From Ostreococcus lucimarinus (taxonomy: Eukaryota): a stretch of DNA of 64,000 nucleotides. The stretch lies in assembly GCA_000092065.1 (NCBI GenBank), contig CP000590.1, one strand, 5' to 3'. The position numbers and the translations under genes were made by a program. Under the pieces are notes generated by a model. The model was not told the origin of the DNA, did no database searches, and was given only the letters and a program-made list of their open reading frames with translations. This document shows positions 13,905 through 64,000 of the stretch, in pieces (position 1 is the stretch's first letter; every line of letters begins with the position of its first letter).

Positions 13905-13963
13905 ACGACGTTATTGCTGTATGAAATGAAATAAATACATTTACAACACTCGAGCGCTCGACG

Positions 13964-15602
13964 CTAAAAATTCGTCGGCGTCGCCTCGACGGGGTCGCCG
14001 CGATCGTTTCTTCGCATGATCTCGCGCGCCAGACGCACTTGTCGACCGAGCACGAGAACAGACACGCGCCCTTCGCCCAACGCGCCGCGCGCGGTGCGCC
14101 CGACTCGTCGAACGTACTCGCTCGGGTCGCGCGGGAAATCAAACAAGATGACGTGCTTGACTCGCGAAGCGTCCAAACCTCGAGACGCGCGGTCCGTGCA
14201 CACGAGAATGTGCGGCATCTTCGACGGCGACGTGATGAACTCTTTCAGGTTTCTCTGCTGCTGCTCGCGCGACAGCGCGGCGTGGTACGGTAGTATCTTG
14301 TACTTGTCGCCGTCGCGATCGGCGCGCGTGAGCATGTTTTCGAGCTTTCTGCACGTCTCGATTTTGTTGCAAAACAGCAACGCCCGGTCGGCTTTGTCGA
14401 CCTCGAGCAAATCGAGCAAGGCTTTGAACTTGCGATAAAATCCCGATTGGTCATCGAAGACGTCACCACCGCTACAATCGATGAGACGCTCGAGCATACC
14501 AGCCGAAGGACGATGAAGACCCGGGCCTTGCACGACGCGAATATCGCGCTCGAAAAACTTTTTCAGTTGCTTCAACACTTCGTCCGGGATCGTGGCGGTG
14601 ACGAGCACGAACTGCGTGTCTGATTTCACCGCGTTTCGAATCGGCGCGACTTGTTCGGCGAACTCAAAGCTTTCACCGAGCAAGACGTCGCACTCGTCCA
14701 AAACCACCGCGTCGACGTCGTCCGTGAACATTTTGCCTTCCTCGATGAGCCTCGCCACGCGCCCGGGAGTGCCGACGACGATGTCTACGCCGTCTACGAG
14801 AGCTTCAATTTGCGTTCGCGACTTACTGACGTTGTTTGCCAGGAGCGAGCGCGAGCGAAGGCCGCCGAAAGAGAGTTGCTTTACGACGTCTCGCACTTGC
14901 GTCGCGAGCTCGCTCGTCGGCGTCAAAACCAAAAGCCGCGGCTTTTTCGATTTGCTTCGCCCTTGCTCGACTTCGATCTTTTGCACGCGCTGCAGCAGCG
15001 GCAACAAGTACGCCAACGTCTTTCCACTTCCCGCTTGATCGGCCAACAAAACGTGGCCGTCGTAGCGCGGCGCGGACGCGCCCGCGACGTCGCCGCTGAG
15101 CACGCGGTACGATTGCGCTTGAATGTGCGACGGACGATCTATTTTGAAACTCTCCTTCAACGCCGCGCGCACCTCGTCGCTCGCGCCGAGCTGGTTGAAC
15201 CGCGCGCCGGAAAAGAACGAGTACTCGTCCAAATCATCCGGCTCGCGCGTGTACACCATGGGTTCGAAGTCGTCCTCGACGTACTTGCTCAAGAGTTCGG
15301 GGAGGTACTGTTTTCTCTCCTCGCCCCATCGACGTCCGTCCTCGAGTTCGTCCTCCAGCCCTCGCAACAACCAATCGTCATCGTCGTCATCGAACGCGCG
15401 ATCGTCTTCGTCCATCACGTCGTCACCTCCCTCGTACTCGCTCCTCGCGTCGTAATACCGATCCCGCCGCTCGTACGCGTCGTCGCCATCGCCTCGAAAC
15501 CCTCGCGCGCCGCCCTCGCGTCCGCGCGCGCCGTCGTCACCGACCGCTCCGCGTCCAAATCGTCCCCGCCCGCGTTCGCCGTCCCGCTCGGCGCCGTCGA
15601 AC

Positions 15603-15645
<43 letters not shown>

Positions 15646-16141
15646 CCTCGCGCGCGCCGCCGCGACCGCCGCGACCCCGCCGTCCTCCCTCGCGCGCGCG
15701 TCCACCGCCGTCCGCCTCGAACCTCGACCCGAACCGCGCGTCGTCTCTTTCTCTCCGCGCGAATCCGTCGTCTCTTTCTCTCCGCGCTCGCCGCGCGTCG
15801 TCGCCGTCGTCGCCGTCGTCGCCGCGCCTCGCGTCCGCGTCGCCCGGCCGCGAGCCGTCGCCGCGCTCGATGATTCGAAACCCGCCTCGCCGCTCGGCGT
15901 CGCGCTCGCGCGCGTCGCGCTGGTGCGCGCGCTCGTCGGCGTCGTCGCGCCGATGCGTCCCTCGCGCGCGAGACGCGCGCGCGTCGTCGTCGTCGCGAAA
16001 CGCGGCGGCGGCGGCGCGACGGGGCGCGCGCGCGCGCGCGAGGGACGCGCGCGAGACGCGCGAGGACGCGCGACGCGCGAGGGCGACGACGCCGACGCGC
16101 GTCGCGCGCGCGCGCGAGGGCGCGGTCGCGGCGGAGGTCAT
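13964..16141 (-). CDS. DEAD-box ATP-dependent RNA helicase (organelle-type N-extension)
   Basis: Q-motif/motif I region PSHIQAQS...ADQAGSGKTLAYLLP, motif Ia LVLTPTSELATQV, motif II VVLDECDVLL, motif V/VI region VCTDRASRGLDASRVKHVILFDFPRDPSEYVRRVGRTAR. A long R/G-rich N-terminus precedes the core. Confidence 0.8.
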
Positions 16142-16395
16142 CGCGCGGCGGGGTGTGAGGATGCGCGACGACGACTGGCGTTACAAGAGCGTCCGGGCGC
16201 GGACGACGCGCGCGGGACGGCGCGGCTCGCGAAGCCGGCGCTCGCGAGATTTAAAACACAACAACAACGCGCGTGAGGGAAACCTCGCGCGAGGGATAAC
16301 GACGGGGGAGAAAATTTGACCGGGAGCGGCGGCGCCGACGAGACGCGGGACGCGCGCCGCGCGCGTTTCGGCGGCGGCGCGAGAACGCGTCGCGA

Positions 16396-17262
16396 TCAAG
16401 ACGTCGCGGATTCGGACAAGCCGAAAACGCCGATCTCGACGTTGAAGGCGCTGGGATCGTCCTCGCGCGCGAGGTCCATCGTCACGGATTCCGCGCGCGA
16501 CGCCTCCTCGGCGTCGACGGCGACGAATCTGTAAAAGCCTTCCATCGTACCGCGCTTGGTCTTCAAAGGCGTCGACGACGCGTACTCGAAGCTCGCGCCC
16601 GGTTTGATCGTCGGTTGCTTGCCCACGACCCCGGCTCCGCGCACGGCTTCCGTTCGTCCCTCGTCGTCCGTGATCAACCAGCTTCGACTCAACAACTTGA
16701 CGCTGGAGTCGGAGACGTTTGTAATCGTCACGACGTACTGGAAAAACCACATAGATTCCTTTGGCGAGCTTCGATCGATCACGCATCGCGATTTCACCCG
16801 CACGCGCACGCCGCGCGTCGTGCGATCGCTCTCGCACGGCGACAGCCCGTCCACGACGGCGTCTCGCTCGAGTTCCTCGATCAACATCTTCACGCTCGCC
16901 GCCTTTTCGTAGTCTTCGCGCAAAATCAGCTCCGCCAAGTCGTCCTCCGCCCGCGCCAGCGGATCGCGTCGTCGCAGCGCGCGCAGCTCGTCCCGCACGT
17001 TCGCCGCCGCCGCAAAATTCTCACACGCGATCGCGTCCGCCAACCTCTCGTCCAGCCGCATCGCTCGTCTCCTGAGCGCGGGATCCGTGAACGCCTCCGC
17101 CGTCGTCCTCAACCGTTTCGTGTTCCCGTCCTCCCCCGCGCCGCCCGCGCGCGCCGCGCACCGCGCCGCGCGCCGCGCGCGCGCGCCCCCGCGACGATCC
17201 CGCGTCCGCGTCACCGCCCGCGACGCCCGCGCGTCGCCCGAACGCATCGCACGCGTCGCCAT
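16396..17262 (-). CDS. ApaG-domain protein with an N-terminal UVR motif
   Basis: UVR-like AAANVRDELRALRRRDP...EDYEKAASVKMLIEEL, then an ApaG/DUF525 core FQYVVTITNVSDSSVKLLSRSWLITDDEGRTEAVRGAGVVGKQPTIKPGASFEYASSTPLKTKRGTMEGFYRF. Confidence 0.65.
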   Translation of the reverse strand: MATRAMRSGDARASRAVTRTRDRRGGARARRAARCAARAGGAGEDGNTKRLRTTAEAFTDPALRRRAMRLDERLADAIACENFAAAANVRDELRALRRRDPLARAEDDLAELILREDYEKAASVKMLIEELERDAVVDGLSPCESDRTTRGVRVRVKSRCVIDRSSPKESMWFFQYVVTITNVSDSSVKLLSRSWLITDDEGRTEAVRGAGVVGKQPTIKPGASFEYASSTPLKTKRGTMEGFYRFVAVDAEEASRAESVTMDLAREDDPSAFNVEIGVFGLSESATS

Positions 17263-23335: not shown

Positions 23336-26300
23336 TTAATGCGTCAAGCGCTGAAGCTCTTCGACGCGACGAATGATTTCGGCGCGATCGCACTTCATGT
23401 CAGCGGCGACGACGTCGGCTTGCTCGACTTTTAAGTCGAGAAACGATTCGACGAGGTCGCCGTCGACGAAATTCCTCGAAGGATCGCTCTTGCGGCGAAG
23501 CGTGTGGCGGAATGAACGCCACTCCGCGTGTTTCAAGCCACCGACGCCTTGGATGTGCTTGTTCATGGAGGTTTGAAGGCGCTCGGCGAAATCGTAGGCG
23601 TCCTTCGGCAGACTGGCCAAGACGCCGATGACGCCGTTACCAGTGCCGAAGAGCAAAGTGGGGACTTCTAAACTGTCGCCATCTTTGAGGCTCATGACGA
23701 GTGAACCAGGAGAGAACACGTTGACGAACTCACCTAGGTGATACTCGCCCGTGATTTCCAAACGACTACGCTCTTCGTCCGTCATAGCGTTCATGTTGCG
23801 AGCGACGGTAAACAGGTTCAAGCTGTTCTCGGCGCCGAGATAGGTTTCGTCATCGTCTAACATCGCCACCGCAGTCATCCAATTTGCGTTAAAGTCTCTC
23901 GCGATCTCGTCGATCGCGCCTTCTTCGGGCTTGTACTGTAACAGCGACATGGACTTAAGCAAATCGCCGACGAGAATCCAATCGCCTCTCGTCTTGACGG
24001 AGAACGTGATGATTTGGCCGTGGTGCGAGCACTCGCTCACCAGCTCGTGCGCGTCGTCTTCGCGCGGTGTCCATTTGAATAGCTCTAGCTTAGAATTGAT
24101 CCCCGCGAGAAGTTTACCCTTGAATGCGTTCAAGTTGTACACGGCGCCTCGAACTTCTTTCTCGGATACGAGTTCAAGGGCGTCCGCCTCAACGCGTAAG
24201 ACGAGAATGCGCCCGCGCGACGGTTCATCTTCTTGCTCGTAAGCAAACCCCGTACCGACGACGTAGTACTCTCTCGAATCGCCCGCGAACGAGCACGACA
24301 TCAAGGAACTCGCCAATTCGTGCTCTTCTAATCGAAACTGGTGGAGCGTGTCAAACGAACCGTCGTCGATGAGTCTGATGAAGAGTTCTTGATCACCCTT
24401 CGACATCAAATGCTCGACCGCGACCGCGAATGTGTTCGTGTCGACCTGATGCGCGATCCTACGCGGGTGACCACCGAGTGGGATCGTGCGAATGTGCAGC
24501 TTTTGAATGTCGTCAATCCCGCCGATGGTTAAATCTTCGTCGCCCGCCAACGCGAGAGCGTCCGGGAACGCTTCGCTGCTGAACGGACAGACATGCAACA
24601 CCTCTTGCACGTTGACGTTGGAGTAGATTAGCTTTTTGTTGTTGCTGAAGATCACCGTCGGCCTATCCGACGCCGCGAACACACTACTCACATTCGTCGC
24701 ATGGCTCTTAAACGTTTGCAACGTAATCGGCTTGGTACCGAGGCTCAATTTTTTGCGCCCGCTCAAAGCCCCAGTGTTCTGATCTAAAACGTACGTGATC
24801 AACTGACCGTCACCTAAGCCTACGAACAAGTATGGAATGTCTTCGAACGAACACAGCAACGTCGATCGAGGGATGATGTCTTCATCTGTACTTTCTTTCG
24901 TGATGACGCTCAAGTCACTCATTGACGCGAGCACGATATCCATGGACCACAAACCAACCGCGCACACCGGCGAGCTCATCCCATCGCCCATGGGCGTGCA
25001 ATCTAAGCAAGCTATTTCGTTCTCGAATGTCTTACTCGCCAAGAGGACGATTTTGCCCTTCGCCACGTTCAAGCAGTGTAACTGCCCGCCCGCCGCTGCA
25101 ACAAGAATTTGAGTCGGGTTGCACTTCGCCGAAAGAATCTCCGCACCGTCCTTTGGCTTCCATTCATCGAGTAAGTCGCCACCTCTTGAGACGAGGCGGA
25201 CGCCCCTGTGCGTCACTTGAAGGAAAACATTGCCTTGCATGTTGCCACAGCACAAAGTTTGCGCTTCAGCGTCGAAACCCGCAATTTCTGTCTCGTCCAA
25301 CGTGTCCCCTTCGTCCCCGACAAAGCCCAAGATGCGAGTTTCGTTTATGAATGTGACGACCAAGTACTTATCCATTTGGCTATCGTCGCTATCGCGAAGT
25401 GAAAACAAGCCTTTGACACCGGGAAGCTGAATCACCGCTTGCTCGTCAATGCCTATGCCGTTGCGCACTACGCGTAAACTCCCATCTTTTAACGCCCCGC
25501 TACACGTAACCACTTGCCCTTGACCGTGCCGCTCTAAGTCAACGAATGCAAAGTCTACAATGGGACCGAGATTGGTGAACTCTTCTAAAATTTGCACGTA
25601 CGTCGGGTTGCCGTCTTTATCGATGCTCGTCTTCTCCGCGTGCAGCTTGATGAGTTGCGAGTCGCCGTACGTGCTACCGACGAATACCACGCCGTTATCG
25701 AGATAGCTAAGCGTACTCGCGATTGACGTGTCGCCAAGTCTCTCAATTTTAAGCTCTCGAACGCGCTTGCCGTCGTGTAAGATGACGAGCAAGTAGAGCA
25801 TGCCGTCCGCGTCGCCCAGCAGGTAGCGCGAGCCGTCCGGATCAATAGCGCCGTAGCACGTGATGTTCGTCCGATCGGGGATGTTGGGGATGTTGATCGC
25901 TTTGAGAAACACATCTGCGTCGTCTTCGAACTTGTTCAAGTACACGATAATTTCCTGCCCCAAGACGACGACACCGCCGATGGGCGCGGGGACCGGAATT
26001 ATTTTATTCGAGCCACCCTCTAAATCGTTCTGCGCCCAAGGCGACGACACGAATTCCTTCTCGCGAATGCCGATCTCGTACGTCTTAATGTGTACCGCAT
26101 CTTTAGTGTCTCGGTAAAGCACCGCGATCGTCGGCTTGGGCGTGCCGTGCAAGAACTTGATGTCCTCCACGCGCAACTCCTCGAGGCGAATGTTAAACGC
26201 CTCCTTCACCCCGCCCTTTTCGTCGCACGGAATCACCTTGAATAATCCGTCGTACAGCCGCAACCCGATCGCTCGACACGTGTCATCCACGATCCCAATC

Positions 26301-26935
26301 TGTCCATCATCCGCCGGTCGACCGATATTATCCTGCACGTCCCCGAACGCCTCCGTCTTCAACTCTTCGTTCGCCTCGTCGTACGACAGCACCGTAAACC
26401 CATACCTCTCCGTCGTCAGGTACAACCGCGCCTTCCCATCGCCCGATCCCGTTTGGCACAGCGACATCGTCGCGATTCGACCATTTATCGGCACATCCAG
26501 CACCGGTTTCAGCCCCTCCGCGTGCAAGCGATACACCTCCAGTCGCGTGCTCTTCGCGACGATTAAATCAGTCGCCTCGCTCGACGTAAACTTTCCCACG
26601 GCCGAGTGCGTGACCACGGTGGGTTTGTGCGCCTGCGGAAACCACGCGTCGTCGTCGTCGTCGTCGTCAGTCGATCGCTCGTCATCGCGCAGAGCGTCGC
26701 GCAGTCGGTCGTTCGCTCGGTCGTCAACGATCGAGCGTCGCGTCGCTTCGCGTCGTACGCGCGCGCGCGCACCGTGACGACGTAATTGTGCTGACACCGC
26801 GCGCCTGAACCGCTCTCGCGCGCGTCCTCGTTCGTCATCGCGTCGAGGTCTTCGCGCGTCGCCGAGTGCGGATTGGCAGCTTGGATTGGGCGGCGACGGC
26901 GAGACGCGGCCGCGGCGCGCGCTTCGCGAGGGCAT
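23336..26935 (-). CDS. DDB1: DNA damage-binding protein 1 (DDB1), CUL4 adaptor
   Basis: N-terminal AHKPTVVTHSAVGKFTSSEATDLIVAKSTRLEVYRL and the C-terminal ...FVDGDLVESFLDLKVEQADVVAADMKCDRAEIIRRVEELQRLTH are colinear with DDB1 over three beta-propellers. About 100 aa of R/D-rich sequence upstream of the conserved start carry no internal Met, so the start is uncertain. Confidence 0.85.
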   Translation of the reverse strand: MPSRSARRGRVSPSPPNPSCQSALGDARRPRRDDERGRARERFRRAVSAQLRRHGARARVRREATRRSIVDDRANDRLRDALRDDERSTDDDDDDDAWFPQAHKPTVVTHSAVGKFTSSEATDLIVAKSTRLEVYRLHAEGLKPVLDVPINGRIATMSLCQTGSGDGKARLYLTTERYGFTVLSYDEANEELKTEAFGDVQDNIGRPADDGQIGIVDDTCRAIGLRLYDGLFKVIPCDEKGGVKEAFNIRLEELRVEDIKFLHGTPKPTIAVLYRDTKDAVHIKTYEIGIREKEFVSSPWAQNDLEGGSNKIIPVPAPIGGVVVLGQEIIVYLNKFEDDADVFLKAINIPNIPDRTNITCYGAIDPDGSRYLLGDADGMLYLLVILHDGKRVRELKIERLGDTSIASTLSYLDNGVVFVGSTYGDSQLIKLHAEKTSIDKDGNPTYVQILEEFTNLGPIVDFAFVDLERHGQGQVVTCSGALKDGSLRVVRNGIGIDEQAVIQLPGVKGLFSLRDSDDSQMDKYLVVTFINETRILGFVGDEGDTLDETEIAGFDAEAQTLCCGNMQGNVFLQVTHRGVRLVSRGGDLLDEWKPKDGAEILSAKCNPTQILVAAAGGQLHCLNVAKGKIVLLASKTFENEIACLDCTPMGDGMSSPVCAVGLWSMDIVLASMSDLSVITKESTDEDIIPRSTLLCSFEDIPYLFVGLGDGQLITYVLDQNTGALSGRKKLSLGTKPITLQTFKSHATNVSSVFAASDRPTVIFSNNKKLIYSNVNVQEVLHVCPFSSEAFPDALALAGDEDLTIGGIDDIQKLHIRTIPLGGHPRRIAHQVDTNTFAVAVEHLMSKGDQELFIRLIDDGSFDTLHQFRLEEHELASSLMSCSFAGDSREYYVVGTGFAYEQEDEPSRGRILVLRVEADALELVSEKEVRGAVYNLNAFKGKLLAGINSKLELFKWTPREDDAHELVSECSHHGQIITFSVKTRGDWILVGDLLKSMSLLQYKPEEGAIDEIARDFNANWMTAVAMLDDDETYLGAENSLNLFTVARNMNAMTDEERSRLEITGEYHLGEFVNVFSPGSLVMSLKDGDSLEVPTLLFGTGNGVIGVLASLPKDAYDFAERLQTSMNKHIQGVGGLKHAEWRSFRHTLRRKSDPSRNFVDGDLVESFLDLKVEQADVVAADMKCDRAEIIRRVEELQRLTH

Positions 26936-27976: not shown

Positions 27977-29254
27977 ATGGCGCGCGCGTCGCGAGGGAAA
28001 TCGCGCGCGAGCGAGGGATCGACGCTGGCGATCGCGCCCGGATTGGACGTGACGACGCCGTATTATCGCGCGCTCGCGCGAGCGATGACGAAACGGGCGC
28101 GGGTGTGGACGGAGATGGCGCATCACGACGCGGTGGAACGCTTAAAGTCAAACACGCTGACGCGCGGCGAAACGCTGGCGACGGCGCAGCTGGGAGGGGC
28201 GGATCCGAGCGGATTGGCGCGCGCGGTGGAGGTGTGCGAGGGTGAGTACGGATACGATGAGGTGAATTTAAATTGTGGGTGCCCGAGCGATCGAGTGTGC
28301 GGGAAGGGGGAGACGGAAAAACGGTTCGGGGCGTCGATGATGCTGGACGTCGAACGCGCGGCGGAGTGCGCGAGACGCATGGCGGAGGCGTCGGATCGAG
28401 CGAAGATTACGATTAAACACAGACTCGGGGTGCGGTACGATAAGACGATGATGAAACACGAAGAGACGGACTGTTACGATTACGTCGTGAACTTTGTCGA
28501 GGCCATACACGAGGCGGCGGGAGTGGAGCATTTCATCGTGCACGCGCGAAGCGCGGTGATGGGCGGATTGAATCCCGACGCCAATCGAAAGATTCCGCCT
28601 TTGCGATACGACGAAGTGTTCGCGCTGTGCGACGAGTTCGGAAGATGTGATTTCACGCTAAACGGTGGCGTAAACTCGCTGGCGCAGGCGAAAGAGCTTC
28701 TCGATCGCGAAGACGGCAAGTTGGCGGGCGTGATGATGGGTCGGGCGTTTTACAAGCATCCGTGCATGCTCGCCGACGTCGATCGAGTCATCTTCGGTGA
28801 CGCCGCGTGCGAGCCAGCGCTGACGCGCCGGTCGGTGATTCAGCGTTACGGTGAATTCGGCGACGGTGTGTACGCCGCCAGAGGCGCGGACATCGACGTA
28901 AAATCTCGCAAAGCCGTCGCGCGTAAGCTCTTCAAAGCCGTCTCCGGCGTCACCTTTGGCACGTCGACGGGGTCGAAAATGTTCCATCGCGCCGGCGACG
29001 CCATGCTCGCCGCGCGCTACGACGCCATTCCACCCGACCCATCGGATGACCGTCCATTCAGCGTCAACCTCATGGAGTGTTGCGTCGACGTCATGGACGC
29101 CGCCGTCTTGGACAAGCCTCTCGTCGACGTGAAGCCCGAGGGAGATCAGACGTTTTACGTCTCGCCGCGCGAGGACGGCTGGGACCGACGAAACCGAGGC
29201 GAAGACGGCGCTCCCGACGCGTGCGCGCGCGCGTTGAAAACCATCACGATTTAG
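27977..29254 (+). CDS. tRNA-dihydrouridine synthase (Dus family)
   Basis: GADPSGLARAVEVCEGEYGYDEVNLNCGCPSDRVCGKG...FIVHARSAVMGG matches the TIM-barrel FMN site and catalytic Cys region of Dus enzymes. Confidence 0.8.
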   Translation: MARASRGKSRASEGSTLAIAPGLDVTTPYYRALARAMTKRARVWTEMAHHDAVERLKSNTLTRGETLATAQLGGADPSGLARAVEVCEGEYGYDEVNLNCGCPSDRVCGKGETEKRFGASMMLDVERAAECARRMAEASDRAKITIKHRLGVRYDKTMMKHEETDCYDYVVNFVEAIHEAAGVEHFIVHARSAVMGGLNPDANRKIPPLRYDEVFALCDEFGRCDFTLNGGVNSLAQAKELLDREDGKLAGVMMGRAFYKHPCMLADVDRVIFGDAACEPALTRRSVIQRYGEFGDGVYAARGADIDVKSRKAVARKLFKAVSGVTFGTSTGSKMFHRAGDAMLAARYDAIPPDPSDDRPFSVNLMECCVDVMDAAVLDKPLVDVKPEGDQTFYVSPREDGWDRRNRGEDGAPDACARALKTITI

Positions 29255-49377: not shown

Positions 49378-51843
49378 ATGGCGACTGAAACCGCGTTAGC
49401 GAAGGGACAAAGCCGCGTGTTGAGCAAACCGTCGTCGCCGCGATCGAACGATGGAAGAGACAACGCGAACGACGACTTAATCATTCGCACCGGCGAAGAG
49501 CTCGGCGAGCGCGTCGGGTCGGCGGCGAACGCCACGACGACTGGGCACCATCACAAAGGGCACCATCCGAGGGATGACGAAGACATGTCGGATGAGAGTA
49601 CGACGTACACTGTGCTCGACTCTCTCGGATCCGGTACGTTCGGGCAAGTCGTCGCCGCGGCGTCTAGCGCCGACGGTCAGACGAGAGCTCTCAAGGTGAT
49701 TAAGAATCACCCCGCGTATTTTCACCAAGCGCACGTCGAAATCGGCATCTTACGAACGTTGAACACAAAGTGCGGCGATCGACCGTCGGGGTCGGTGATC
49801 GTGGACTTGATGGATTACTTTGTCTGCCACAACCACCTCTGTCTGGTTTTTGAGCTGTTGGGAATGAACCTCTACGAGCTGCTGAGGAAGAACAAGTTTA
49901 AAGGATTACATCTCGGGGCGATTCGTGGGATGATGAAACAATTGCTCGGCGCTTTGGATTTGCTCAGAGACGCCCACGTGGTCCACTGCGACATCAAGCC
50001 CGAGAACATTTTGTTGTGCCGCGACGACTCGTTTCAAGTCAAACTAGTTGATTTCGGCAGCGCGTGTTTTCAAAACAGGACGGTGTATCAGTACATCCAA
50101 AGTCGTTTCTACCGCTCGCCGGAAGTGTTTTTGGGGATGTCGTATGGAATGCCCATCGATATGTGGTCTCTAGGGTGCGTCGCCGCGGAATTGTTTTTAG
50201 GCTTACCGATCTTTCCGGGTTCGAGCGAGTATGACTTGCTGAGCCGCATTTGCGAAACGATAGGAACGCCCCCGGCGGACATGCTCGCCAAGGCGCCGAA
50301 CACCAACAAGTTTTTCACGCGAGTAGATATCGGGTTCGACGAGAGCTCGTCTTCGTTGGCGTCTTCTTCCGGCGGTGGTACGTCGCGATACAAGCTTCTC
50401 TCGCTACGAGAATTCGAGGCGCGCTCTGGCAGGCGCGCGGCGATGGGGAAAAAGTATTTCAAGTACACTGAGTTTTCGGACATCATAGCGAGTATACCGT
50501 ACCAGTCATCCAAAGTGGATCCTAACGACCACGCCGCCGTAGACGCGGAGAAGAAAGCTCGAATGGTCGAGCGTTCGGCGTTCTACGATTTACTCACCGG
50601 CATGATGGAGATCGATCCCGCGGTGCGCTGGACGCCGGCGCAGGCGTTGAAACATCCGTTCATAACGGGCGAGCCATTCGACGAGCCGTTTGCGCCGAAG
50701 CCAATTCCTGAGCGCACGACACCAGAAGAGCGCGAAGAGTTGCAGCGCGTGGCGGCGAAGGAAGCGGCCAAGATTTCTTCGGGCGAGCCAGTCAAGAAGA
50801 AGAAGAAGCCCATCCCGCGCGACGTTCCGCCGATGGCCGACGTCGTGCCGCCGACGCCGCCGGCGATTCCAGTCGGTGGTTTGGCCGCCGCTTTCGCCGC
50901 AAGTTCTGCGTCTGGATCAGCACCGCCGATACAACCAATCACGCCGAATGTTGTCAATCCCGTTGTCGCCGAAGCGTTCAACGGAGCGATGCTGCAAGCG
51001 CAAGCGGCGGCGCACGCGCACGCCGCCGCGGCCATCGCGGCGATGTCTCCCGGAAGCATCCCGATGTCGCCGGGCGGTGGACTTGGCGGTGGTTATCCAC
51101 CTTTCGTCGTCGGTTCATCCGGAGGGTCGTTCAATTCGCCCTCGTCCTTGCTGTCCGGCTCCTTCATTGGTTCGCCGCACGCCACGAACAGCGCGGCGAT
51201 GCACCCGCTTCACTTTGGCGTCTCGCCGCCGACACACCAATTGTCGAGTATGGGTTTGTCGACATCACACGCGGCACGCGCGGCACAGGCAGCGGCAGCG
51301 GTGCAGCTCCCGCCTGCAAGTCCACTCGGCCCGCGCGGCGTGGCTTTCGCGCGCGGTATGGACGCTCGTCACGCCAAGCCGGGGACGTCCTTCCACGGCG
51401 TGGGCGGCGGGATGTGGAGCGCTTCAGCGTCGGCGTCGGCGTCGCGCGATAGTTTGAAAACGCTTCAAACAGTACACGAGTCCATGATCTCGCCACCGGT
51501 TGCATCGCCGAGTCCGATCGACGACGATCACGCAGAGGGCGCGGATTGGGATCCAACGTTCGGCGAGATGGACGATTTAGAGATGGAAGACGCGCCGACG
51601 AAGAAACAGGCGAACTCGACGACGACGATAGCGATGCCCACGCGTCAAGCGATACCACCTGTCGTCAACTCACTCTCCAGCGTAGCCGCCGCGTTTTCCG
51701 TCGGGAGCGCACCGAATTTTGCGAGCGCGAGTCAGTTCAGCGTCTCGCCAAACTCAGCGTTTGCGACGAATCAAACCAAACCGACGCGACAAAAGTCTAG
51801 CAAGGACAAAGCACCGGCGAGCGACGAGGACGGCAAAACCTAG
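49378..51843 (+). CDS. DYRK-family dual-specificity protein kinase (YAK1-like)
   Basis: Glycine loop LGSGTFGQV; catalytic loop VHCDIKPENILL; DFG then the activation-loop YIQSRFYRSPEV (DYRK YxY-type loop); a DYRK-like N-terminal part precedes the kinase domain; long Pro/Ala/Ser-rich C-terminal tail. Confidence 0.75.
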   Translation: MATETALAKGQSRVLSKPSSPRSNDGRDNANDDLIIRTGEELGERVGSAANATTTGHHHKGHHPRDDEDMSDESTTYTVLDSLGSGTFGQVVAAASSADGQTRALKVIKNHPAYFHQAHVEIGILRTLNTKCGDRPSGSVIVDLMDYFVCHNHLCLVFELLGMNLYELLRKNKFKGLHLGAIRGMMKQLLGALDLLRDAHVVHCDIKPENILLCRDDSFQVKLVDFGSACFQNRTVYQYIQSRFYRSPEVFLGMSYGMPIDMWSLGCVAAELFLGLPIFPGSSEYDLLSRICETIGTPPADMLAKAPNTNKFFTRVDIGFDESSSSLASSSGGGTSRYKLLSLREFEARSGRRAAMGKKYFKYTEFSDIIASIPYQSSKVDPNDHAAVDAEKKARMVERSAFYDLLTGMMEIDPAVRWTPAQALKHPFITGEPFDEPFAPKPIPERTTPEEREELQRVAAKEAAKISSGEPVKKKKKPIPRDVPPMADVVPPTPPAIPVGGLAAAFAASSASGSAPPIQPITPNVVNPVVAEAFNGAMLQAQAAAHAHAAAAIAAMSPGSIPMSPGGGLGGGYPPFVVGSSGGSFNSPSSLLSGSFIGSPHATNSAAMHPLHFGVSPPTHQLSSMGLSTSHAARAAQAAAAVQLPPASPLGPRGVAFARGMDARHAKPGTSFHGVGGGMWSASASASASRDSLKTLQTVHESMISPPVASPSPIDDDHAEGADWDPTFGEMDDLEMEDAPTKKQANSTTTIAMPTRQAIPPVVNSLSSVAAAFSVGSAPNFASASQFSVSPNSAFATNQTKPTRQKSSKDKAPASDEDGKT

Positions 51844-55075: not shown

Positions 55076-57128
55076 GGCGTCGCGATATCACGGGCGACGT
55101 CGCGCGAACCAAGCCCATCGCGAACCAGCCCAACCCATCGCGTCGCACGCGCGCGCGCCATTCGACCGCGCGTGCGCGCCGTCGCGCGGCGATAGCGACA
55201 ACGCTTTCATGCGCGTCGACGGCGATGACTCGGCCCGCGTCGTCGCGCGTCGTCGTCGTCGTCGCGCGCGCTCGAGCGACAAAATGCGCGCCGACACCGA
55301 GGTCGTTGCGTCGTCGTCGTCGCGCGTCGTCGTGCGCGTCTTCGTGCCGCACGATCATCTGCGACGGACGTGGATGCGACAGTCGCGAACGGGTGATACC
55401 GCGGCGCCGGTGCCGCTGGACGTGTACGGGACGCGACGGGCGAGGGGAGATGGTCGAGGCGCGGATGTCGTGGCGTGGCGGGCGACGGAACGACCGCGTC
55501 GGAGACGACGCGATCGAGGCGCGCATGGAGCGCAGGAAGAAGGCGGGCGTGTGAAAAAGCTCGTTCGTGTCATGGAAATCGTGTTCGGGGACGACGACGA
55601 CGACGATGACGAAATGGGTGACGACGACGACGAGTGCGCGTGCTTCGTGACGATGCGCGTGGGACGCGCGTGGGATGAGGCGCCTCGCGCGTCTGCGCGC
55701 GTTCGGCGACCGGACGGACGGTGGGTGCGCGCGGATAACGCGGTAGTGATATTGTGTCCAATGCCGGACCCACCGTTGATGGTGATGACATTGGGAGGGG
55801 ATTATGTCTCCGAGGACGGCGCGGCGTGCGCGTTCGAGCTCGCGTTGGCGGATTTGAACGACGCTGGCCGAGCGGCGAACGGATTCGTGGAGCACGACGT
55901 TGGGTCCAGCTCGTCTGCGCCCTCATCATTGTCGATCGTGTCGCGCGCGATCGTCGCCGTGATCGATGCGGCGTTGCGAGGCTTGGATTACAAGTGCATC
56001 AAAAGTCTCGGCACCGAGGCGCGATGGGGCGGCGGCGTGACGACGCGAAGCGTGTGCGAGGTGTCCGCCAGCGCGTGCGTCTTGCGCGCGCGTTTAGTGC
56101 TCGCTCGCTCGCTTCTCGTCCGTGATGGTATGGATTGGCGACGATCTAGTAGACTTGATAAGCGCCGTCTCGTGGCGCGCGCGGTGCAAGTTGCCGTCGA
56201 CATCTTCGCGGGCGTTTGCGTCGCACGCGTGCGCGACTCGCGTGATGTGTCGTTCGCGCTCGAGCGTGTCGCCGTCGGTGGCTGGGGCACTCGACCGGGA
56301 TCGCGAGATCTTCTCGGCACACGAGTCATAGAGACTAACGCGCGATGGATCTCCCACGGCGATCCGCTCGGCGTCAAGTTGCACGTGCCGTTGGCTCGGG
56401 CTCTGGGATCGCTCGGCGTCGGCTTCGCGAGCACGCTCTCCGGCGCCTATGAATCCAGCAGCGCGGTCAAAGCGTACCTCGGTTTCGTGTCGTTTTCGCT
56501 TCGACACGGCGGTATATTCGGAGCTTCCATGGTGTTCGCCATCGCCGCGGACACGATGACGATATTTACCTCGCACATCAGCGCCCTGCACGTGTACAGC
56601 TCGCTCTTCATCACCGCCCAGCTGCGATGCGTGCGATTTCTCTATCGACGCTTCATCAACCCGAAGCTACCACCGAAAGGTTTCAAGGCCCCGCTCGCGG
56701 ATGCCCGACCGCGCACGGTCGAAGAAGTCGTCGTGGGCACACTCACGTTACCACCGCTCTTGCTGCTCTTTCCCACGGTATTCTTCTATTACATGTCGTA
56801 CTTGGTTCTCCACGCGGGCACCGTGCTCGTGCGCTTGGTCATGGTATTCGCTGCGTCGACGCTTCTCGCGTTCCCGACCGACGACGTCCTCGTGCGTCTG
56901 TGGACCCCCTACGCGTTTCCGCAGAGCGTTGACTTGCGCACTCGAGCCTTGCACGGCGTCGAATTCGCCACAATCGTCCCCACCTGTCGATCCTTCGGCG
57001 ACGTCTTGCAACCGTTCGCTCGCCAAGCGGGCGCTTGGCTTGGCGCGGTGGCCGTCGCCGTCGCTCGAGCGTGCGCGACGTGCGGACGATTTCCCCTGGC
57101 ACTAGTTCCGTTCTCTCGAGCGTATTGA
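55068..57128 (+). CDS. GPI1/PIG-Q-like protein (GPI-GlcNAc transferase complex subunit), tentative; true start probably downstream of 55068
   Basis: C-terminal hydrophobic Gpi1-like region LHVYSSLFITAQLRCVRFLYRRFINPKLPP...LTLPPLLLLFPTVFFYYMSYLVLHAGTVLVRLVMVF. The ORF's first codons overlap the COX19 start on the other strand, so a downstream Met (for example near 55208 or 55372) is more likely. Confidence 0.4.
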   Translation: MDMASRYHGRRRANQAHREPAQPIASHARAPFDRACAPSRGDSDNAFMRVDGDDSARVVARRRRRRARSSDKMRADTEVVASSSSRVVVRVFVPHDHLRRTWMRQSRTGDTAAPVPLDVYGTRRARGDGRGADVVAWRATERPRRRRRDRGAHGAQEEGGRVKKLVRVMEIVFGDDDDDDDEMGDDDDECACFVTMRVGRAWDEAPRASARVRRPDGRWVRADNAVVILCPMPDPPLMVMTLGGDYVSEDGAACAFELALADLNDAGRAANGFVEHDVGSSSSAPSSLSIVSRAIVAVIDAALRGLDYKCIKSLGTEARWGGGVTTRSVCEVSASACVLRARLVLARSLLVRDGMDWRRSSRLDKRRLVARAVQVAVDIFAGVCVARVRDSRDVSFALERVAVGGWGTRPGSRDLLGTRVIETNARWISHGDPLGVKLHVPLARALGSLGVGFASTLSGAYESSSAVKAYLGFVSFSLRHGGIFGASMVFAIAADTMTIFTSHISALHVYSSLFITAQLRCVRFLYRRFINPKLPPKGFKAPLADARPRTVEEVVVGTLTLPPLLLLFPTVFFYYMSYLVLHAGTVLVRLVMVFAASTLLAFPTDDVLVRLWTPYAFPQSVDLRTRALHGVEFATIVPTCRSFGDVLQPFARQAGAWLGAVAVAVARACATCGRFPLALVPFSRAY

Positions 57129-57219
57129 TTTATTAGCCATCGTAGCGCGTTGTAGTCGTAGTCAACGTCAATCGCCGCCGCGTTCGCCGCAAGCCGCGCG
57201 AGCGAGCACCCTGTCCTCA

Positions 57220-58851
57220 GTGCTCGACGCCCGCGAGTTCGCGCGCGAGGCGAAAAGTCGTTCGTCCGAACGCGCTCGACTTGAACGCGAGTGCGTGCGT
57301 GCTCGAGCGCCGTCTGTGTCGCCCTCCGCGCGCGCGCGCGACGTAACACCCCCGTCGAGCGCGATGGACGGGGCGTTGGGCTTTTTGTCATCCCTGCTCG
57401 ATCGTGGACTTGGTCGAGGGCAAGAGACGACGGATCCGATCACCACGCGGCCGGTGAATACGTACGGGAGCGACGGGAGCGACGGGAGCGATGGAGCGAA
57501 GACGCGGCGGCGAGCGCGACCGGCGGCGCCGAAACCGACGCTGAGCGAAGAAGACGAGCGACGGTCGACGTACATTGAGAACGCGAAATACTTGTTGATC
57601 ACGTGCGTGGTGTGGGTGCACGCTTTGGATGACTTTTTAGCGACAGCCACGATCGTGAATGCCGAGAGCGCGAGCGTGCGGCGAACTAAACTCGACGTGA
57701 TGGAGCCGGCGTTGCCGTGGATTCGAGCGCTCTATCTCACGCTGGCGACGTTTAGCATGCCTCTTTTTACCGCTCTGGCGGGATTCCAGAGCAAGTCGTG
57801 GTTGGAAATCGCGAGAGGATACGACGCCAACGCCTCGGTGATGCTCGCGCGCGTGCAAAAGTCGACGTCCACGCTGATAGGAGGGTGGGTGTTTTGGCAA
57901 GCGTTGTACGTCGCGGTGTCGTATTCAGACGTATCACCGCTGCAATGGTGGTCACCCGTCGGCGTCACGTGGTTCCTGATCGCACTGTGGGTGTGGCGAA
58001 ACAGCGTATTACTCCTTGGGGCGCTGAGAGATAGCACAATCTACGCAATCGTGTGCGTATTAGCCATCGCCGTCGGTTTCACTGATACGCCGTCGACGAA
58101 GAATGGATTGGCGTTTTTGGATTGGCAACGCGTGTGCGCATACGCCATATACTTCTACGCTGGGTTAGTTTTAGTAAAGCGTGAGCACGTGGACGAGATT
58201 TTGAGGCGATTCATGCATCTTAGCAGGCCTTGGATGCGCTTCGCCGCGGGATATGGCGTTCTCGGCGTCGTTTTTGGCGCGTTTATGCTGTCGGATGTTC
58301 TCGGCGAGCCTTTCGGCGAAGTGCAAGAGTGGCTGCTCGTCGTCTCTCCTTATGGGGTAACCAAGTGGTACCATCCGATCATCGAGGCCCTTTGGCGCGT
58401 CGTGCTTTATCTCGTCGTCGCTTTGGCCTCAGTGGCGTTCATGAGCGTCGTGCCGACGGAGGAGTACTTCTTCACGGAATTGGGATCGCGGACGCTCACA
58501 GCCTATTTGCTTCATCGCGTGTTCCTCACGACTTACACCGACATCACGACCAAGTTTTGGGACGATGATGACATCGATGTCGCGTTCCAAATCACCATGG
58601 GCGTCTTCATGTTACCCCTACTAGTGTCTCAAGTGTGCTTGACCAGAGCCGTGACGACATTTTGCGCGCCCCTCGTCGACCCTGCGTCGCGAATGGCGGA
58701 GACGATGCCGTGGATTTTTCACGCTCGATACGACGCTTACGACACGACGGAAGAAGAAGAGATCATCGACGTCGCCGCTCGCGATGGTATCGAGACACCG
58801 CTCGATCCTACGGATCGCGATGTCGCGCGCTCGTGGCGAAGCGGAGAGTAA
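57220..58851 (+). CDS. Acyltransferase-3 family-like polytopic membrane protein, tentative
   Basis: Ten or more hydrophobic helices (YLLITCVVWVHALDDF, LYLTLATFSMPLFTALAGF, WFLIALWVWRNSVLLLG, IYAIVCVLAIAVGF, AYAIYFYAGLVLV, VVLYLVVALASVAFMSVV...), consistent with OafA/acyltransferase_3 topology. No catalytic motif was verified. Confidence 0.35.
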   Translation: MLDAREFAREAKSRSSERARLERECVRARAPSVSPSARARDVTPPSSAMDGALGFLSSLLDRGLGRGQETTDPITTRPVNTYGSDGSDGSDGAKTRRRARPAAPKPTLSEEDERRSTYIENAKYLLITCVVWVHALDDFLATATIVNAESASVRRTKLDVMEPALPWIRALYLTLATFSMPLFTALAGFQSKSWLEIARGYDANASVMLARVQKSTSTLIGGWVFWQALYVAVSYSDVSPLQWWSPVGVTWFLIALWVWRNSVLLLGALRDSTIYAIVCVLAIAVGFTDTPSTKNGLAFLDWQRVCAYAIYFYAGLVLVKREHVDEILRRFMHLSRPWMRFAAGYGVLGVVFGAFMLSDVLGEPFGEVQEWLLVVSPYGVTKWYHPIIEALWRVVLYLVVALASVAFMSVVPTEEYFFTELGSRTLTAYLLHRVFLTTYTDITTKFWDDDDIDVAFQITMGVFMLPLLVSQVCLTRAVTTFCAPLVDPASRMAETMPWIFHARYDAYDTTEEEEIIDVAARDGIETPLDPTDRDVARSWRSGE

Positions 58852-58926
58852 TTCTCTACTGTAAATCTAAAATCTAAATCTAAACCATCTAAACTCAACG
58901 CTAACGACGCGAACTTGACACGTCGA

Positions 58927-59955
58927 TCATAAATCGAGCTTACCGGTCGCGACGAGCGCGACCCAGATCACGCCGACGACGAGCGCCGAGATGCCGCTCA
59001 CGACGGAGAAGCGAAACGCCACGGCGGCGCTCCTGGGAAGCAAACCGAGAAGAAACGCCAACGCAGTCATCGCTGCGACGCTAGAGACGACGAAACCGAA
59101 AATATACAACGCCACGCGCGTGGAATCTGCGAGAAACGCGGCTGGGAGAACGTAAACCACGCCCGAAACGCCCGAAACGCCGTGCGCGACTCCGACGCCG
59201 AACGCCGCGAATTTACCTTCGCGCGTCGACTCCTCGCCGACCATGTCTCGCATGCGATTCCAAAGCGAACGACGCTCGGAAATCGCTTCGCCGTGGATTT
59301 CGCGCGTACCGTGAACGTCGTTCTTGTGCGCGTGCTCGTGGGAGACTCCCAATGCGTGCGCCTCGGCGTGTGCGGCGCTCCCCGCCACGACGACGACGGC
59401 GACGGCGTTCCGCGCGCCCGCCGTCGCGCCATCCTCGGCGTGCGCCAGATCGTCATCGCGCGCCGCTTCATCTTCGACGTGCGCCTTGGCGTGCCTTTGT
59501 TTTCGGTCCCATCGCCACGCGCTCCTTAACGTCGCCAATCCTAACCAAATCATCGCGAACCCGACGACGAAGTCGCTCGCCGCCCCCAGCGCGTCTTCGT
59601 CCACTCGGTCTTCGCACGCCAACACGATTCCACCCACGAGCGCGAGCCCTAGGGCGTGTCCCGAGCCCCATCGCGCGCCTTGTCTCGCGCACGCCCACGC
59701 GAGGTCGCGTCGACGACGCGCGTCGTCTTCGTCGTCGTCGTCGTCGCCGTCCGCCAACCGTCGCGCCCGTTCGACGCGTCGCGCGCTCGTCGCCACCGCG
59801 AACACGCCCGCCAAGTGATCGGGTCCCGTGAGCGCGTGTAACGTCCCCGCGATGAGCGCTAATCCGAACGCTTCGCCCGCCGACGCATCGCGTAGCGCGC
59901 GCGACGCCCCGCCCATGGCGCGACGCTTTATGACCGCCCGCCCGAACGCCCGCAC
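58927..59955 (-). CDS. NicO/HoxN-like transition-metal (Ni/Co) transporter family membrane protein with a His-rich loop
   Basis: TM1 motif LHALTGPDHLAGV (compare HoxN/NicO GxxHAxDADH); a central His-rich loop HAKAHVEDE...HAEAHALGVSHEHAHKNDVHGTREIHGE; a second half VAHGVSGVSGVVYVLP. Confidence 0.5.
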   Translation of the reverse strand: MRAFGRAVIKRRAMGGASRALRDASAGEAFGLALIAGTLHALTGPDHLAGVFAVATSARRVERARRLADGDDDDDEDDARRRRDLAWACARQGARWGSGHALGLALVGGIVLACEDRVDEDALGAASDFVVGFAMIWLGLATLRSAWRWDRKQRHAKAHVEDEAARDDDLAHAEDGATAGARNAVAVVVVAGSAAHAEAHALGVSHEHAHKNDVHGTREIHGEAISERRSLWNRMRDMVGEESTREGKFAAFGVGVAHGVSGVSGVVYVLPAAFLADSTRVALYIFGFVVSSVAAMTALAFLLGLLPRSAAVAFRFSVVSGISALVVGVIWVALVATGKLDL

Positions 59956-60168
59956 GACCTCGTGCCTAGGGTTGTGCTTTTTTCAGTTCAACCAGTGCGA
60001 TAGTGCGATGCCTGTGCTGGGTGCTGCTGCGAACTACTCGTGACAAGGACGACGGCGGCGGCGCGGAAGACGCGGCGACAACACACCTGTCGTCGTCGTC
60101 GCGTTTGAACGCGTGCGCTAGAGTGCTACAACTTACTATCTATCTACATATTCATTCGCAACCAACTT

Positions 60169-60900
60169 TTATTCGCCGTCCAAGAGTTCGTCAAGCCAAT
60201 CATCGTCGTTCGCGACGACGGGTTTCGGTGGTGCCGTCGGCTCGACGATTGGTCTCATTTCGTGTTTATGCCGCTCTTCGACGACCTCGGACGCCTCGCT
60301 CTGTGCACCCCGACCGTCGCCGTCTACGAATTCGTCGTACTCGTCGCTCAAACCGAGCAAACGCGCCAATCCGAGCGAGTTCAAATGTGCGCGTATATCG
60401 TCGCGATCGAGCGTCATCGCCTCGGCGATATCCTTCGCAACCGTTGACGTCGACGCTCGCGCGTTCGCGCCGTGCAGTAATAATCTTTCCGCGTCTTGAA
60501 GCGCGTCCACGCTCCAACTCGCGTCGAAGTGCGCCGCCGCCGCGCGCGGTCGAGGCAAACACTGCGTCGCGGCATCGCGCAAGAGTTCGTCTAAATCCGC
60601 CCCGCGCGACATCGCGCGGTCGTCTTCGTCGTCATCGCGCGTCTCCTCGTCCTCCCTCACATCATCACCGCGTCGCCGTTCGTCTTTGCTTCGCCTTTGC
60701 GTCGTCGACGTTGCGTCGCCTTCGCTTCGCCTTTGTGTCATCGTCGTCGTCGTCATCGTCGGTGTGCGCTGCCATCGCTTGTCGAGTCGTTTGCGCTGTT
60801 CGAAACGCGCGCGCGCGTCTCGTTTACGATCGTCCATGCGCGCGAAGACGCGCCGCCGTGTGCGGCGCGTCGCCGCCCAATCGGGACGCGCGCGCATCAT
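60169..60900 (-). CDS. Hypothetical acidic protein
   Basis: 243-aa ORF with a basic N-terminus, a D/E-rich middle and a C-terminus ...VVANDDDWLDELLDGE. It is followed by an AT-rich 3' region (taaaagttggttgcgaatgaatatgtagatag). Confidence 0.35.
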   Translation of the reverse strand: MMRARPDWAATRRTRRRVFARMDDRKRDARARFEQRKRLDKRWQRTPTMTTTTMTQRRSEGDATSTTQRRSKDERRRGDDVREDEETRDDDEDDRAMSRGADLDELLRDAATQCLPRPRAAAAHFDASWSVDALQDAERLLLHGANARASTSTVAKDIAEAMTLDRDDIRAHLNSLGLARLLGLSDEYDEFVDGDGRGAQSEASEVVEERHKHEMRPIVEPTAPPKPVVANDDDWLDELLDGE

Positions 60901-60947
60901 TCGGCGACGCGCAACGGGAGGCGACGACGGTGCGCGCGGTGCGAAGC

Positions 60948-61361
60948 ATGGACGCTACGATCGGGCACGGGGTGATATGTACCCTGGACGAGTGCGCACG
61001 CCGCGCCAAGGAGGCGGACGGGCACGAAGTTTCGATTCGCACGTTGGGAGTGCTCGAGCGTTTCGATACTGACACCGAGCGCGGGACGCTGCGAGCGACG
61101 TCGAAGAGTGCGTCTGGTGCTGACGACGTACACATCGACGTTGACTTCAGCGCCGTGCGACGAGACGAGGACAGCGCGTTCGATGGCGCCGTTCGCACCG
61201 GATCGCGCGTGTGCGTCATTGGCGAGGCGAGACGCGTCGGCGACGAAGCACTGTTTGAGATACGCGCGCGCGTCGTGCGCGCGATGGATGGGTTGGACAT
61301 GCGCGCGTACGGAAAGGCGTTGGAAATCCGCCGAAAATTCCTGGGCGAAACGCCGCCGTAG
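60948..61361 (+). CDS. Small OB-fold-like protein resembling TEN1 (CST telomere-capping complex subunit), tentative
   Basis: 137 aa: MDATIGHGVICTLDECARR...VSIRTLGVLERFDTDTERGTLRAT...GSRVCVIGEARRVGDEALFEIRARVVRAMDGLDMRAYGKALEIRRKFLGE. The C-terminal DG.DM..Y.K..E.RRKFL helix and overall size match TEN1 proteins. Only the 3' part of ORF 60003..61361 is used. Confidence 0.4.
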   Translation: MDATIGHGVICTLDECARRAKEADGHEVSIRTLGVLERFDTDTERGTLRATSKSASGADDVHIDVDFSAVRRDEDSAFDGAVRTGSRVCVIGEARRVGDEALFEIRARVVRAMDGLDMRAYGKALEIRRKFLGETPP

Positions 61362-61455
61362 CGGTGGCGAGCGAGTCGACGGAGAGGCGTCGCGACGACG
61401 CGTAGAACGTAGAGTAGACGAATAGATAAATATGTAGCCCTCGTAGCTTTCGTCA

Positions 61456-61911
61456 TTACATTGATCGACGATACTTGGCGTATACCGCGAGCGCCCCGCA
61501 CGCGATGATGGCCCCAGCGCACGCGCCCAACGCGAGCGTCGTCGCCGTGTGCCGCGCGCGCGCCGCGACCATTTCGTCCAAATCGCGTTCGAGTTTCGCG
61601 ACGCGTTCGGCGCGACCTTCGCTCTTCATCGAGCGATTCTTTTCCGCTCTCAGCGCCGCGCTCGCGACTTCTAACTGCGCGCGGACTTCCGCCAGCTCCA
61701 CCGCGAGCGAGTCCGGATTCGTCGGTGAAGCGAGTTCGGCTTCGAGCTGCACCACGCGCTTCTCGAGCGCCTTGACGTTGCGCTTAGCCTCTTCAGACTC
61801 TTCCTTGTACTGCGCGACGACGAGGGACGCGAAGACTCGTTGCGTCAGTCTCGGATTTGATTCGCACCATCGCGTTCGTTCGTCGTCCTCAGACGGTCGT
61901 CGTTCATTCAA
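61456..61911 (-). CDS. Hypothetical coiled-coil, tail-anchored membrane protein
   Basis: Coiled region EESEEAKRNVKALEKRVVQLEAELAS...LAEVRAQLEVASAALRAEKN and a C-terminal TM LALGACAGAIIACGALAVYAKYRRSM. The stop is followed by AT-rich sequence. Confidence 0.4.
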   Translation of the reverse strand: MNERRPSEDDERTRWCESNPRLTQRVFASLVVAQYKEESEEAKRNVKALEKRVVQLEAELASPTNPDSLAVELAEVRAQLEVASAALRAEKNRSMKSEGRAERVAKLERDLDEMVAARARHTATTLALGACAGAIIACGALAVYAKYRRSM

Positions 61912-62391
61912 ATCGCGTCGTCGTCACACCCACCTTGTTTCTCGACTCCATGAGCGCGGCGTATTTTTGCTTCAGCACGCTCGTCCCCACGGAAGCGCTC
62001 TTCGAGAACGTCTTCGACGGACTCGTCGTCGTCGTCGTCGTTCGTTCTTCGTCGTTCTCCTTATCGTTCGAGCTCATCGTGTCTCGGCGTCGCGCGATGA
62101 CGTCCGTCGCGCGCAGCAGCTGTCGGTCGTCGGAATTTTGAAAATCACCAGGTGTGTGATTGGACTGTGCCCGAACGCGCGATACTCGCGAGCGCGCGTC
62201 ACACGGCGACGGCGATCGTCGCGAGTTGCGCGGCGCTCGCACATGCGTCGTGGGATGACTCGAACGACGACGAGTCAGCGTCGCGCGTCGACGTCGGGGC
62301 GCAGAGACGCGTTCGAAGGCGCGTACGAACGAGAAGACGATGATGATGGGACGTACGACGACGCCGACGACGCCGATTCCGACGGTGAGTG

Positions 62392-63607: not shown

Positions 63608-63754
63608 AACACACACGTAATTAATACGCGACTCGTCGTCCCCGCGCTAATCAATCGCACGTGGCGCAGGGCTTCTTGAACGAAAGCGTAGAAACATAGA
63701 AAATGATTTGCTCATTTGCGAAGACAACGAAAGACGAAAGAAACGAGTGTTCGC

Positions 63755-64000
63755 GCTAGGGTTTAGGGTTTTAGGGTTTAGGGTTTAGGGTTTAGGGTTT
63801 AGGGTTTAGGGTTTAGGGTTTAGGGTTTAGGGTTTAGGGTTTAGGGTTTAGGGTTTAGGGTTTAGGGTTTAGGGTTTAGGGTTTAGGGTTTAGGGTTTAG
63901 GGTTTAGGGTTTAGGGTTTAGGGTTTAGGGTTTAGGGTTTAGGGTTTAGGGTTTAGGGTTTAGGGTTTAGGGTTTAGGGTTTAGGGTTTAGGGTTTAGGG
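63755..64000 (+). repeat. Telomere: (TTTAGGG)n array, G-rich strand 5'->3' toward the window end
   Basis: About 35 uninterrupted TTTAGGG units (plant/green-algal telomere repeat) with one TTTTAGGG variant at the inner edge. This orientation marks a chromosome right end. Confidence 0.95.

Follow-up and report, generated by a model that had tools for sequence, protein, structure and literature searches.

The 137-codon reading frame beside the right-hand telomere of an Ostreococcus lucimarinus chromosome very probably encodes TEN1, the smallest subunit of the CST (CTC1/Cdc13-STN1-TEN1) complex, and owes its telomere-side position to an accident of gene order. We analyzed this frame within a 64,000-nucleotide stretch of contig CP000590.1 (GenBank assembly GCA_000092065.1), hereafter the window; its features are collected in Table 1. 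A sequence-only reading of the window had tentatively called the frame TEN1-like, and the Pfam family Ten1_2, the fold match to human TEN1 and the dN/dS values show the product to be a genuine orthologue. The TEN1 function of the protein is predicted from homology.

To place the product in a family, we searched it against Pfam and against 5.8 billion proteins. The Pfam family Ten1_2 (PF15490, 'Telomere-capping, CST complex subunit') was matched at E 5.5e-30 with 103.9 bits, against a gathering score of 27, and residues 5-134 of the protein lie on positions 2-116 of the 117-position model. The only other Pfam match at E up to 10 was to an unrelated DUF (E 0.085). A profile search had been proposed as a check on the original call, and it returned the TEN1 family far over threshold and along the whole model, rather than an unrelated family or nothing. 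The larger search yielded 12 relatives at 45-100% identity, all with a Ten1_2 domain. These derive mostly from marine metagenomes and include orthologues, 45-93% identical, in several Ostreococcus clades; some members of their clusters carry the JGI name 'CST complex subunit TEN1'.

The 137-aa protein is exactly ABO98342.1 / XP_001420049.1 / UniRef100_A4S488 of O. lucimarinus CCE9901. The window lies at the end of a 613,585-bp record of this strain. Database labels for ABO98342 and A4S488 still read 'predicted protein' or 'Uncharacterized protein', while Table 2 of Shakirov and Shippen (Front Plant Sci 2012; PMC3400083) gives ABO98342 as O. lucimarinus TEN1. The TEN1 identification is correct but already published, and the databases under-annotate it. 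The same paper lists ABO95476 as O. lucimarinus STN1, and could not discern CTC1 in Ostreococcus, Micromonas, Chlamydomonas or Chlorella (PMC3400083). A literature search found no functional work on this algal protein.

Table 1. Features of the window, numbered from its first nucleotide
Feature	Position	Strand	Basis or remark
DNA damage-binding protein 1 (DDB1)	23336-26935	-	cluster name
ABO98333.1, exact match	27977-29251		protein look-up, O. lucimarinus CCE9901
Acetyl-CoA carboxylase, 2060 aa	42149-48331	-	cluster name
YAK1-type dual-specificity kinase	49378-51843	+	cluster name
243-aa acidic protein gene	60169..60900	-	conserved called gene (P0142, 419 contigs), no Pfam family
Head-to-head spacer, 47 bp, TEN1 ATG to ATG of 243-aa gene	60901..60947	.	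coordinates
TEN1 CDS, 137 codons + stop, one exon	60948..61361	+	ORF list, Pfam, exact protein match, dN/dS
N-terminal helix before the barrel (residues 13-22)	60984..61013	+	DSSP on AlphaFold model
Five-stranded OB barrel (residues 28-112)	61029..61283	+	model, Foldseek, alignments
C-terminal helix (residues 118-132, MRAYGKALEIRRKFL)	61299..61343	+	model, profile alignment to human TEN1
151-aa coiled-coil protein, C-terminal hydrophobic tail, tail-anchored-looking	61456..61911	-	
Last gene before the telomere	ends 63607	+	two genes stand between TEN1 and the telomere
Unique subtelomeric DNA, last stop codon to repeats	63608..63756	.	
Telomere tract, plant-type (TTTAGGG)n, one TTTTAGGG variant near the start	63757..64000	+	TRF

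The chromosome end and the position of TEN1

The telomere tract that closes the window contains 34.7 copies of the 7-nt unit with 99% matches (TRF), and 31 overlapping triple-repeat matches fall within it, compared with 0 in shuffles. The G-rich strand runs 5' to 3' toward the end of the window, which is the right chromosome end. The distance to the first telomeric repeat is 2,395 bp from the TEN1 stop codon and 2.8 kb from the ATG, making the earlier figure of about 2.6 kb a fair one. Ten wild contigs match the window at 99.5-99.8% identity, and none ends more than about 250 bp from the CCE9901 telomere junction. One of them, L011, enters (TTTAGGG)n about 95 nt further out than CCE9901, and the chromosome end is confirmed by this independent wild contig. 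We also considered a truncated reference chromosome with much wild DNA beyond it, as contigs L006 and L007 continue past the junction; this was rejected because the repeats of L011 start ~95 nt out.

The junction itself differs between the reference and the wild contigs. In the reference it reads ...GCGCTAG followed by GGTTTAGGG (window 63750-63760), and the wild contigs go on with ~95 nt of unique DNA, TCGCACGTCGCCGTCGTCGCC... The contigs compared at this point were L006 (10260-10421), L007 (3640-3678), L011 (12800-12994) and L020 (9055-9115), and L006 has a further, non-telomeric continuation past the junction. This suggests that the CCE9901 end is a ~100-nt truncation/healing event at a CTAG microhomology shared with the repeat, and that several end variants exist in the wild. 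A metagenome scan for the wild-type junction, GTTCGCGCTAGTCGCACGTCGCCGTCGTCGCC, gave no match.

Several contigs depart from the reference arrangement on a larger scale. In L019 (1-330), (CCCTAAA)n and 100 nt of unique DNA are joined at window 51857, beside the EamA gene, which puts a telomere about 9 kb from TEN1 on the opposite (upstream) side. In both L012 and L017 the last 23 nt connect window 63706 to positions 51939-51917 in reverse complement, in the YAK1/EamA intergenic region. These three contigs are consistent with some of the wild population having the terminal ~12 kb inverted, with an ~83-bp segment at both junctions, or possibly with artefacts at the ends of the assembler's graph. 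Additionally, in L001, from a 98%-identical strain, the sequence after 63607 is an inverted ~4-kb copy of 56190-60130 with arms that are 97-100% complementary. The inverted duplication flanks the TEN1 region (L001 5237-9201 versus 12738-16710) and represents a genuine fold-back duplication of the chromosome end or else a chimera of the assembly. Together, L019, L012/L017 and L001 suggest terminal inversion or fold-back variants, with assembly artefacts as a possible source. In another clade the last few kb likewise differ in arrangement between contigs, with a 2.5-kb segment of L031 (oriented as L024; 11269-13967) inverted relative to L034 (5906-9415), a hint that inversions at chromosome ends occur often in Ostreococcus.

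We compared the surroundings of TEN1 in the other clades. The P0029/P0032 clade has genes for PPIase, acetyl-CoA carboxylase and other products after TEN1; the overlapping contigs L024 and L034, 100% identical over 2.5 kb, reach about 17 kb beyond TEN1 and end in telomere-like GGTTTTTTAGGGTTTTAGGTT. Contigs of the P0005/P0015 clade stop 4.1-4.3 kb past TEN1 in a repeated element of ~230 bp, and L029 continues differently. This element (…AAGATGCGTTCGTCACGTAGAACAAACATGTAATTCAG…), seen at L002 14590-14884 and L027 14370-14791 with no telomere repeats captured, may be a subtelomeric repeat. The block comprising the YAK1 kinase, 2OG oxygenase, Gpi1, EamA, acetyl-CoA carboxylase and TEN1 is syntenic in the clades examined, and heavily shuffled. 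The block is apparently subterminal across the genus, and TEN1 falls within its terminal roughly 2-17 kb in the clades examined.

A telomere-capping gene so near a telomere raises the idea of a position effect, in which telomeric chromatin would adjust TEN1 transcription as the adjacent telomere changes in length or state and so feed back on end protection. If true, erosion or deprotection of the neighbouring telomere would change the amount of a capping subunit, upward or downward, in a eukaryote that is among the smallest free-living ones. In the reference strain TEN1 does lie 2.4 kb from the repeats, wild contig L011 has the same arrangement, the gene stays in the same terminal syntenic block in all clades examined, and many contigs break 4-17 kb from it. 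However, in the P0029/P0032 clade the probable end is at least 17 kb from TEN1, with more than five genes in between, the telomere of L019 is on its other side at about 9 kb, and even within the window two other genes intervene. Neither the present analysis nor the papers searched gave any sign of a telomere position effect in Ostreococcus. Furthermore, chance alone would put one of about a dozen telomere genes in such a place in roughly one genome in five. The O. lucimarinus genome has about 21 chromosomes and about 7,650 genes, from which a rough count puts roughly 1.6% of genes among the last three at an end, so one telomere-related gene near an end is unremarkable. On balance we consider a position effect very unlikely. 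In a weaker version of the idea, the terminal block would be a hotspot of inversion and truncation in wild populations, and TEN1 dosage or expression may vary between strains.

Thus, where the sequence-only reading placed a telomere-capping gene immediately beside a telomere, the adjacency is real; the significance it implied is unsupported, since the distance is conserved neither between clades nor between wild contigs. The adjacency is most likely coincidental, the chance result of gene order in a terminal block prone to rearrangement. We did not find this position of TEN1 reported in the literature. Its importance would depend on a demonstration of position-dependent regulation, and the comparison argues against a conserved arrangement.

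Predicted fold and putative STN1-contact residues

To examine the fold of the protein, we built an AlphaFold model on a shallow 9-sequence alignment and assigned secondary structure by DSSP. The model (mean pLDDT 74.7, pTM 0.67) has an N-terminal helix, five strands at residues 28-40, 45-50, 62-66, 87-97 and 102-112, and a C-terminal helix. Residues 54-58 and about 70-80, both in loops, are modelled with low confidence, and the barrel has a low-confidence loop of variable length between strands 2 and 3 as well as after strand 3. The OB-fold character and C-terminal helix anticipated from the sequence are both present in the model, as a single OB barrel and the helix at 118-132.

A Foldseek search against the PDB returned human TEN1 as its best four matches (8d0b_C, 4joi_C, 6w6w_D and 8soj_C), with E-values from 8.2e-9 to 2.5e-7, TM-scores of 0.69-0.80 and 21-22% identity. 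Thus, the structure comparison suggested by the sequence-only reading gave an OB fold, not a non-OB one, and its best PDB matches are human TEN1 in Stn1-Ten1/CST complexes. Searches by sequence against the same structures were weaker. A phmmer search of the protein against PDB sequences found no match at E up to 10, and a profile of the 9 orthologues placed human TEN1 best at E 0.065, with an unrelated Keap1 chain practically tied (E 0.067). Because these sequence-only searches are weak, the link to solved structures comes from the fold search. In the same profile alignment (E 0.065), the C-terminal motif of TEN1 proteins that the sequence-only reading had cited stands in register with the C-terminal helix of human TEN1.

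The next Foldseek matches were the Pyrococcus (P. abyssi) RPA small subunit at E 5.5e-5, then RMI2 and RPA14/32, all known structural cousins of TEN1. The protein might on this account be another small single-OB subunit, such as RPA14 (RPA3) or RMI2. The archaeal RPA small subunit, RMI2 and human RPA14/32 were indeed matched with probability 1.00 at E 5.5e-5 to 1e-3, and identity to human TEN1 is only 21-22%. However, compared with RPA14-class chains, the E-values of the TEN1 chains are 3-4 orders of magnitude better and their TM-scores higher, TEN1 gives the best PDB profile matches, and the Ten1_2 match at E 5.5e-30 was accompanied by no RPA14 or RMI2 Pfam family at E up to 10. We therefore regard this identity as extremely unlikely, and it was rejected on the Pfam result, which includes neither family, and on structural scores clearly below those of TEN1.

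In human TEN1, the residues that touch STN1 are R27, M100, L104/L105, I109, Y115 and R119, of which R27 forms a salt bridge to STN1 D78 (PMC3691326). In the profile alignment, human R27, M100, L105, I109 and Y115 align with R31, L116, Y121, L125 and F131 of the TEN1 protein studied here. R31 lies in the OB barrel; its pairing with R27 comes from a sub-threshold HMM segment of 2.4 bits and is a lead. Five positions, R31, L116, A120, Y121 and L125, are invariant among 9 Ostreococcus sequences; A120 stands opposite human L104. Position 131 is phenylalanine in O. lucimarinus and tyrosine in other clades. Human R119 has no clear counterpart in algal TEN1 in this alignment. By analogy with the human complex, we infer that the C-terminal helix would be the STN1-binding helix.

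The reading frame and its neighbours

The frame runs from the ATG at 60948 through a stop codon whose last base is 61361 and encodes 137 aa, all as originally described. The C-terminal sequence that the sequence-only reading quoted, AMDGLDMRAYGKALEIRRKFLGE, is present in the product, which ends ...AMDGLDMRAYGKALEIRRKFLGETPP. The last 6 kb of the window contain 42 ORFs of at least 50 aa in DNA of ~60% GC. Because long ORFs are common in such DNA, the length of an ORF is not by itself evidence for a gene.

Conservation provides that evidence. Residues M1 and D2 are invariant in all TEN1 orthologues aligned, which come from several Ostreococcus clades, and this indicates that the ATG at 60948 is the start codon, rather than the GTG further upstream that prokaryotic gene callers select. 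Across 9 orthologues, 47 residues are invariant, and over 100 independent contigs carry a call for the gene. Codon-aligned comparisons between Ostreococcus clades gave a dN/dS of 0.15-0.24, synonymous sites being close to saturated. A chance open frame in GC-rich DNA, with the real transcript coming from an overlapping frame such as the minus-strand ORF 60824..61522, would suit a region where both strands carry many overlapping ORFs of 50-450 aa, but it is vanishingly unlikely and was rejected given the family-level Pfam match, the conserved start and 47 invariant residues, a dN/dS well below 1 in the TEN1 frame at saturated synonymous sites, and the calls on more than 100 independent contigs.

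In the comparison with contig L001, from the 98%-identical strain, dN/dS was 0.5. Taken together, the sequence comparisons indicate that the TEN1 protein is fast-evolving yet constrained. When 60948-61361 is set against L001 10022-10435, the amino acid changes concentrate in strand 1 and the next turn, where GHEVSIRTLGVL-ER is replaced by GREASVRTIGSANER with a one-residue indel and dN/dS is locally high.

The 47-bp spacer upstream of TEN1 is a putative shared promoter region of compact form. The head-to-head pairing with the 243-aa gene is specific to O. lucimarinus; in other clades, the gene upstream of TEN1 encodes a 2OG oxygenase or an FHA/PAP-fibrillin protein. On the downstream side, the 151-aa gene probably has an upstream exon, for which the candidate is a 58-aa ORF at 61907-62080 on the minus strand, with a short intron between the two. 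Homologues of the 151-aa protein are labelled by JGI as 'predicted RNase H-like nuclease (RuvC/YqgF family)', while Pfam gives only weak coiled-coil matches, and the JGI label looks unreliable. The last gene before the telomere encodes a 325-aa product for which an exact look-up in protein records returned no entry.

A Pfam search of the neighbours (the 243-aa, 151-aa, 329-aa, 495-aa and 450-aa proteins and the 58-aa putative first exon) found no significant family. Because the neighbours lack a significant Pfam family, they provide no STN1 or CTC1 neighbour for TEN1 and no functional link through the 243-aa gene. Further from the telomere, the window contains DDB1, acetyl-CoA carboxylase and the YAK1-type kinase, none of which is telomere-specific.

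A proposed algal CST and comparison with known systems

The working of the algal complex is proposed here by analogy with human, yeast and plant (Arabidopsis) CST; what was computed in this study is the family, the predicted fold and the constraint. The C-terminal helix and barrel flank of TEN1 would pair with the N-terminal OB domain of STN1, for which ABO95476 is the candidate. STN1-TEN1, possibly together with a large subunit not recognised in green algae, would bind the G-rich 3' overhang. The complex would also restrain telomerase and bring in DNA polymerase alpha-primase to fill in the C-strand. As CTC1 is not recognisable, the algal assembly may consist of two subunits, STN1 and TEN1, like that of fission yeast, or may include a large subunit that has escaped recognition; in composition it may differ from canonical CST. 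Green algae seem to have STN1 and TEN1 with no recognisable CTC1, and a well-defined algal TEN1 can serve as bait to find the missing large subunit. The practical value of the present work is small: it confirms an assignment from the literature and adds structure-level support and a set of Ostreococcus orthologues.

Of the known systems, the conceptual analogue for a position effect is human TERT, which is regulated by telomere position effect over long distance (TPE-OLD), ~1.2 Mb from its telomere, by looping. It is a telomere-maintenance gene near a chromosome end whose expression tracks telomere length. In contrast, algal TEN1 lies 2.4 kb from the telomere and its position is not conserved. 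RPA14/RPA3 and RMI2 resemble the algal protein in having an OB barrel and a C-terminal helix, which bundles with partner OB domains.

The closest known structures are those of human TEN1 (4JOI, 6W6W, 8D0B and 8SOJ). Similar to the algal protein, human TEN1 is a single OB barrel with a C-terminal helix, although it is shorter (123 aa versus 137 aa) and only 21-22% identical. The algal protein has an additional N-terminal helix (residues 13-22) and a longer, acidic and poorly predicted insertion (~51-61 and 67-86), the length of which varies among Ostreococcus clades. A further difference is that a CTC1 partner is not known in green algae (PMC3400083). Among plants, the comparison is with Arabidopsis thaliana TEN1/MDF1 (NP_176022.2); ABO98342 is listed beside the plant TEN1 orthologues in Table 2 of PMC3400083. 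Plant and algal TEN1 belong to the common Pfam family Ten1_2, and both come from organisms with the same TTTAGGG telomere repeat.
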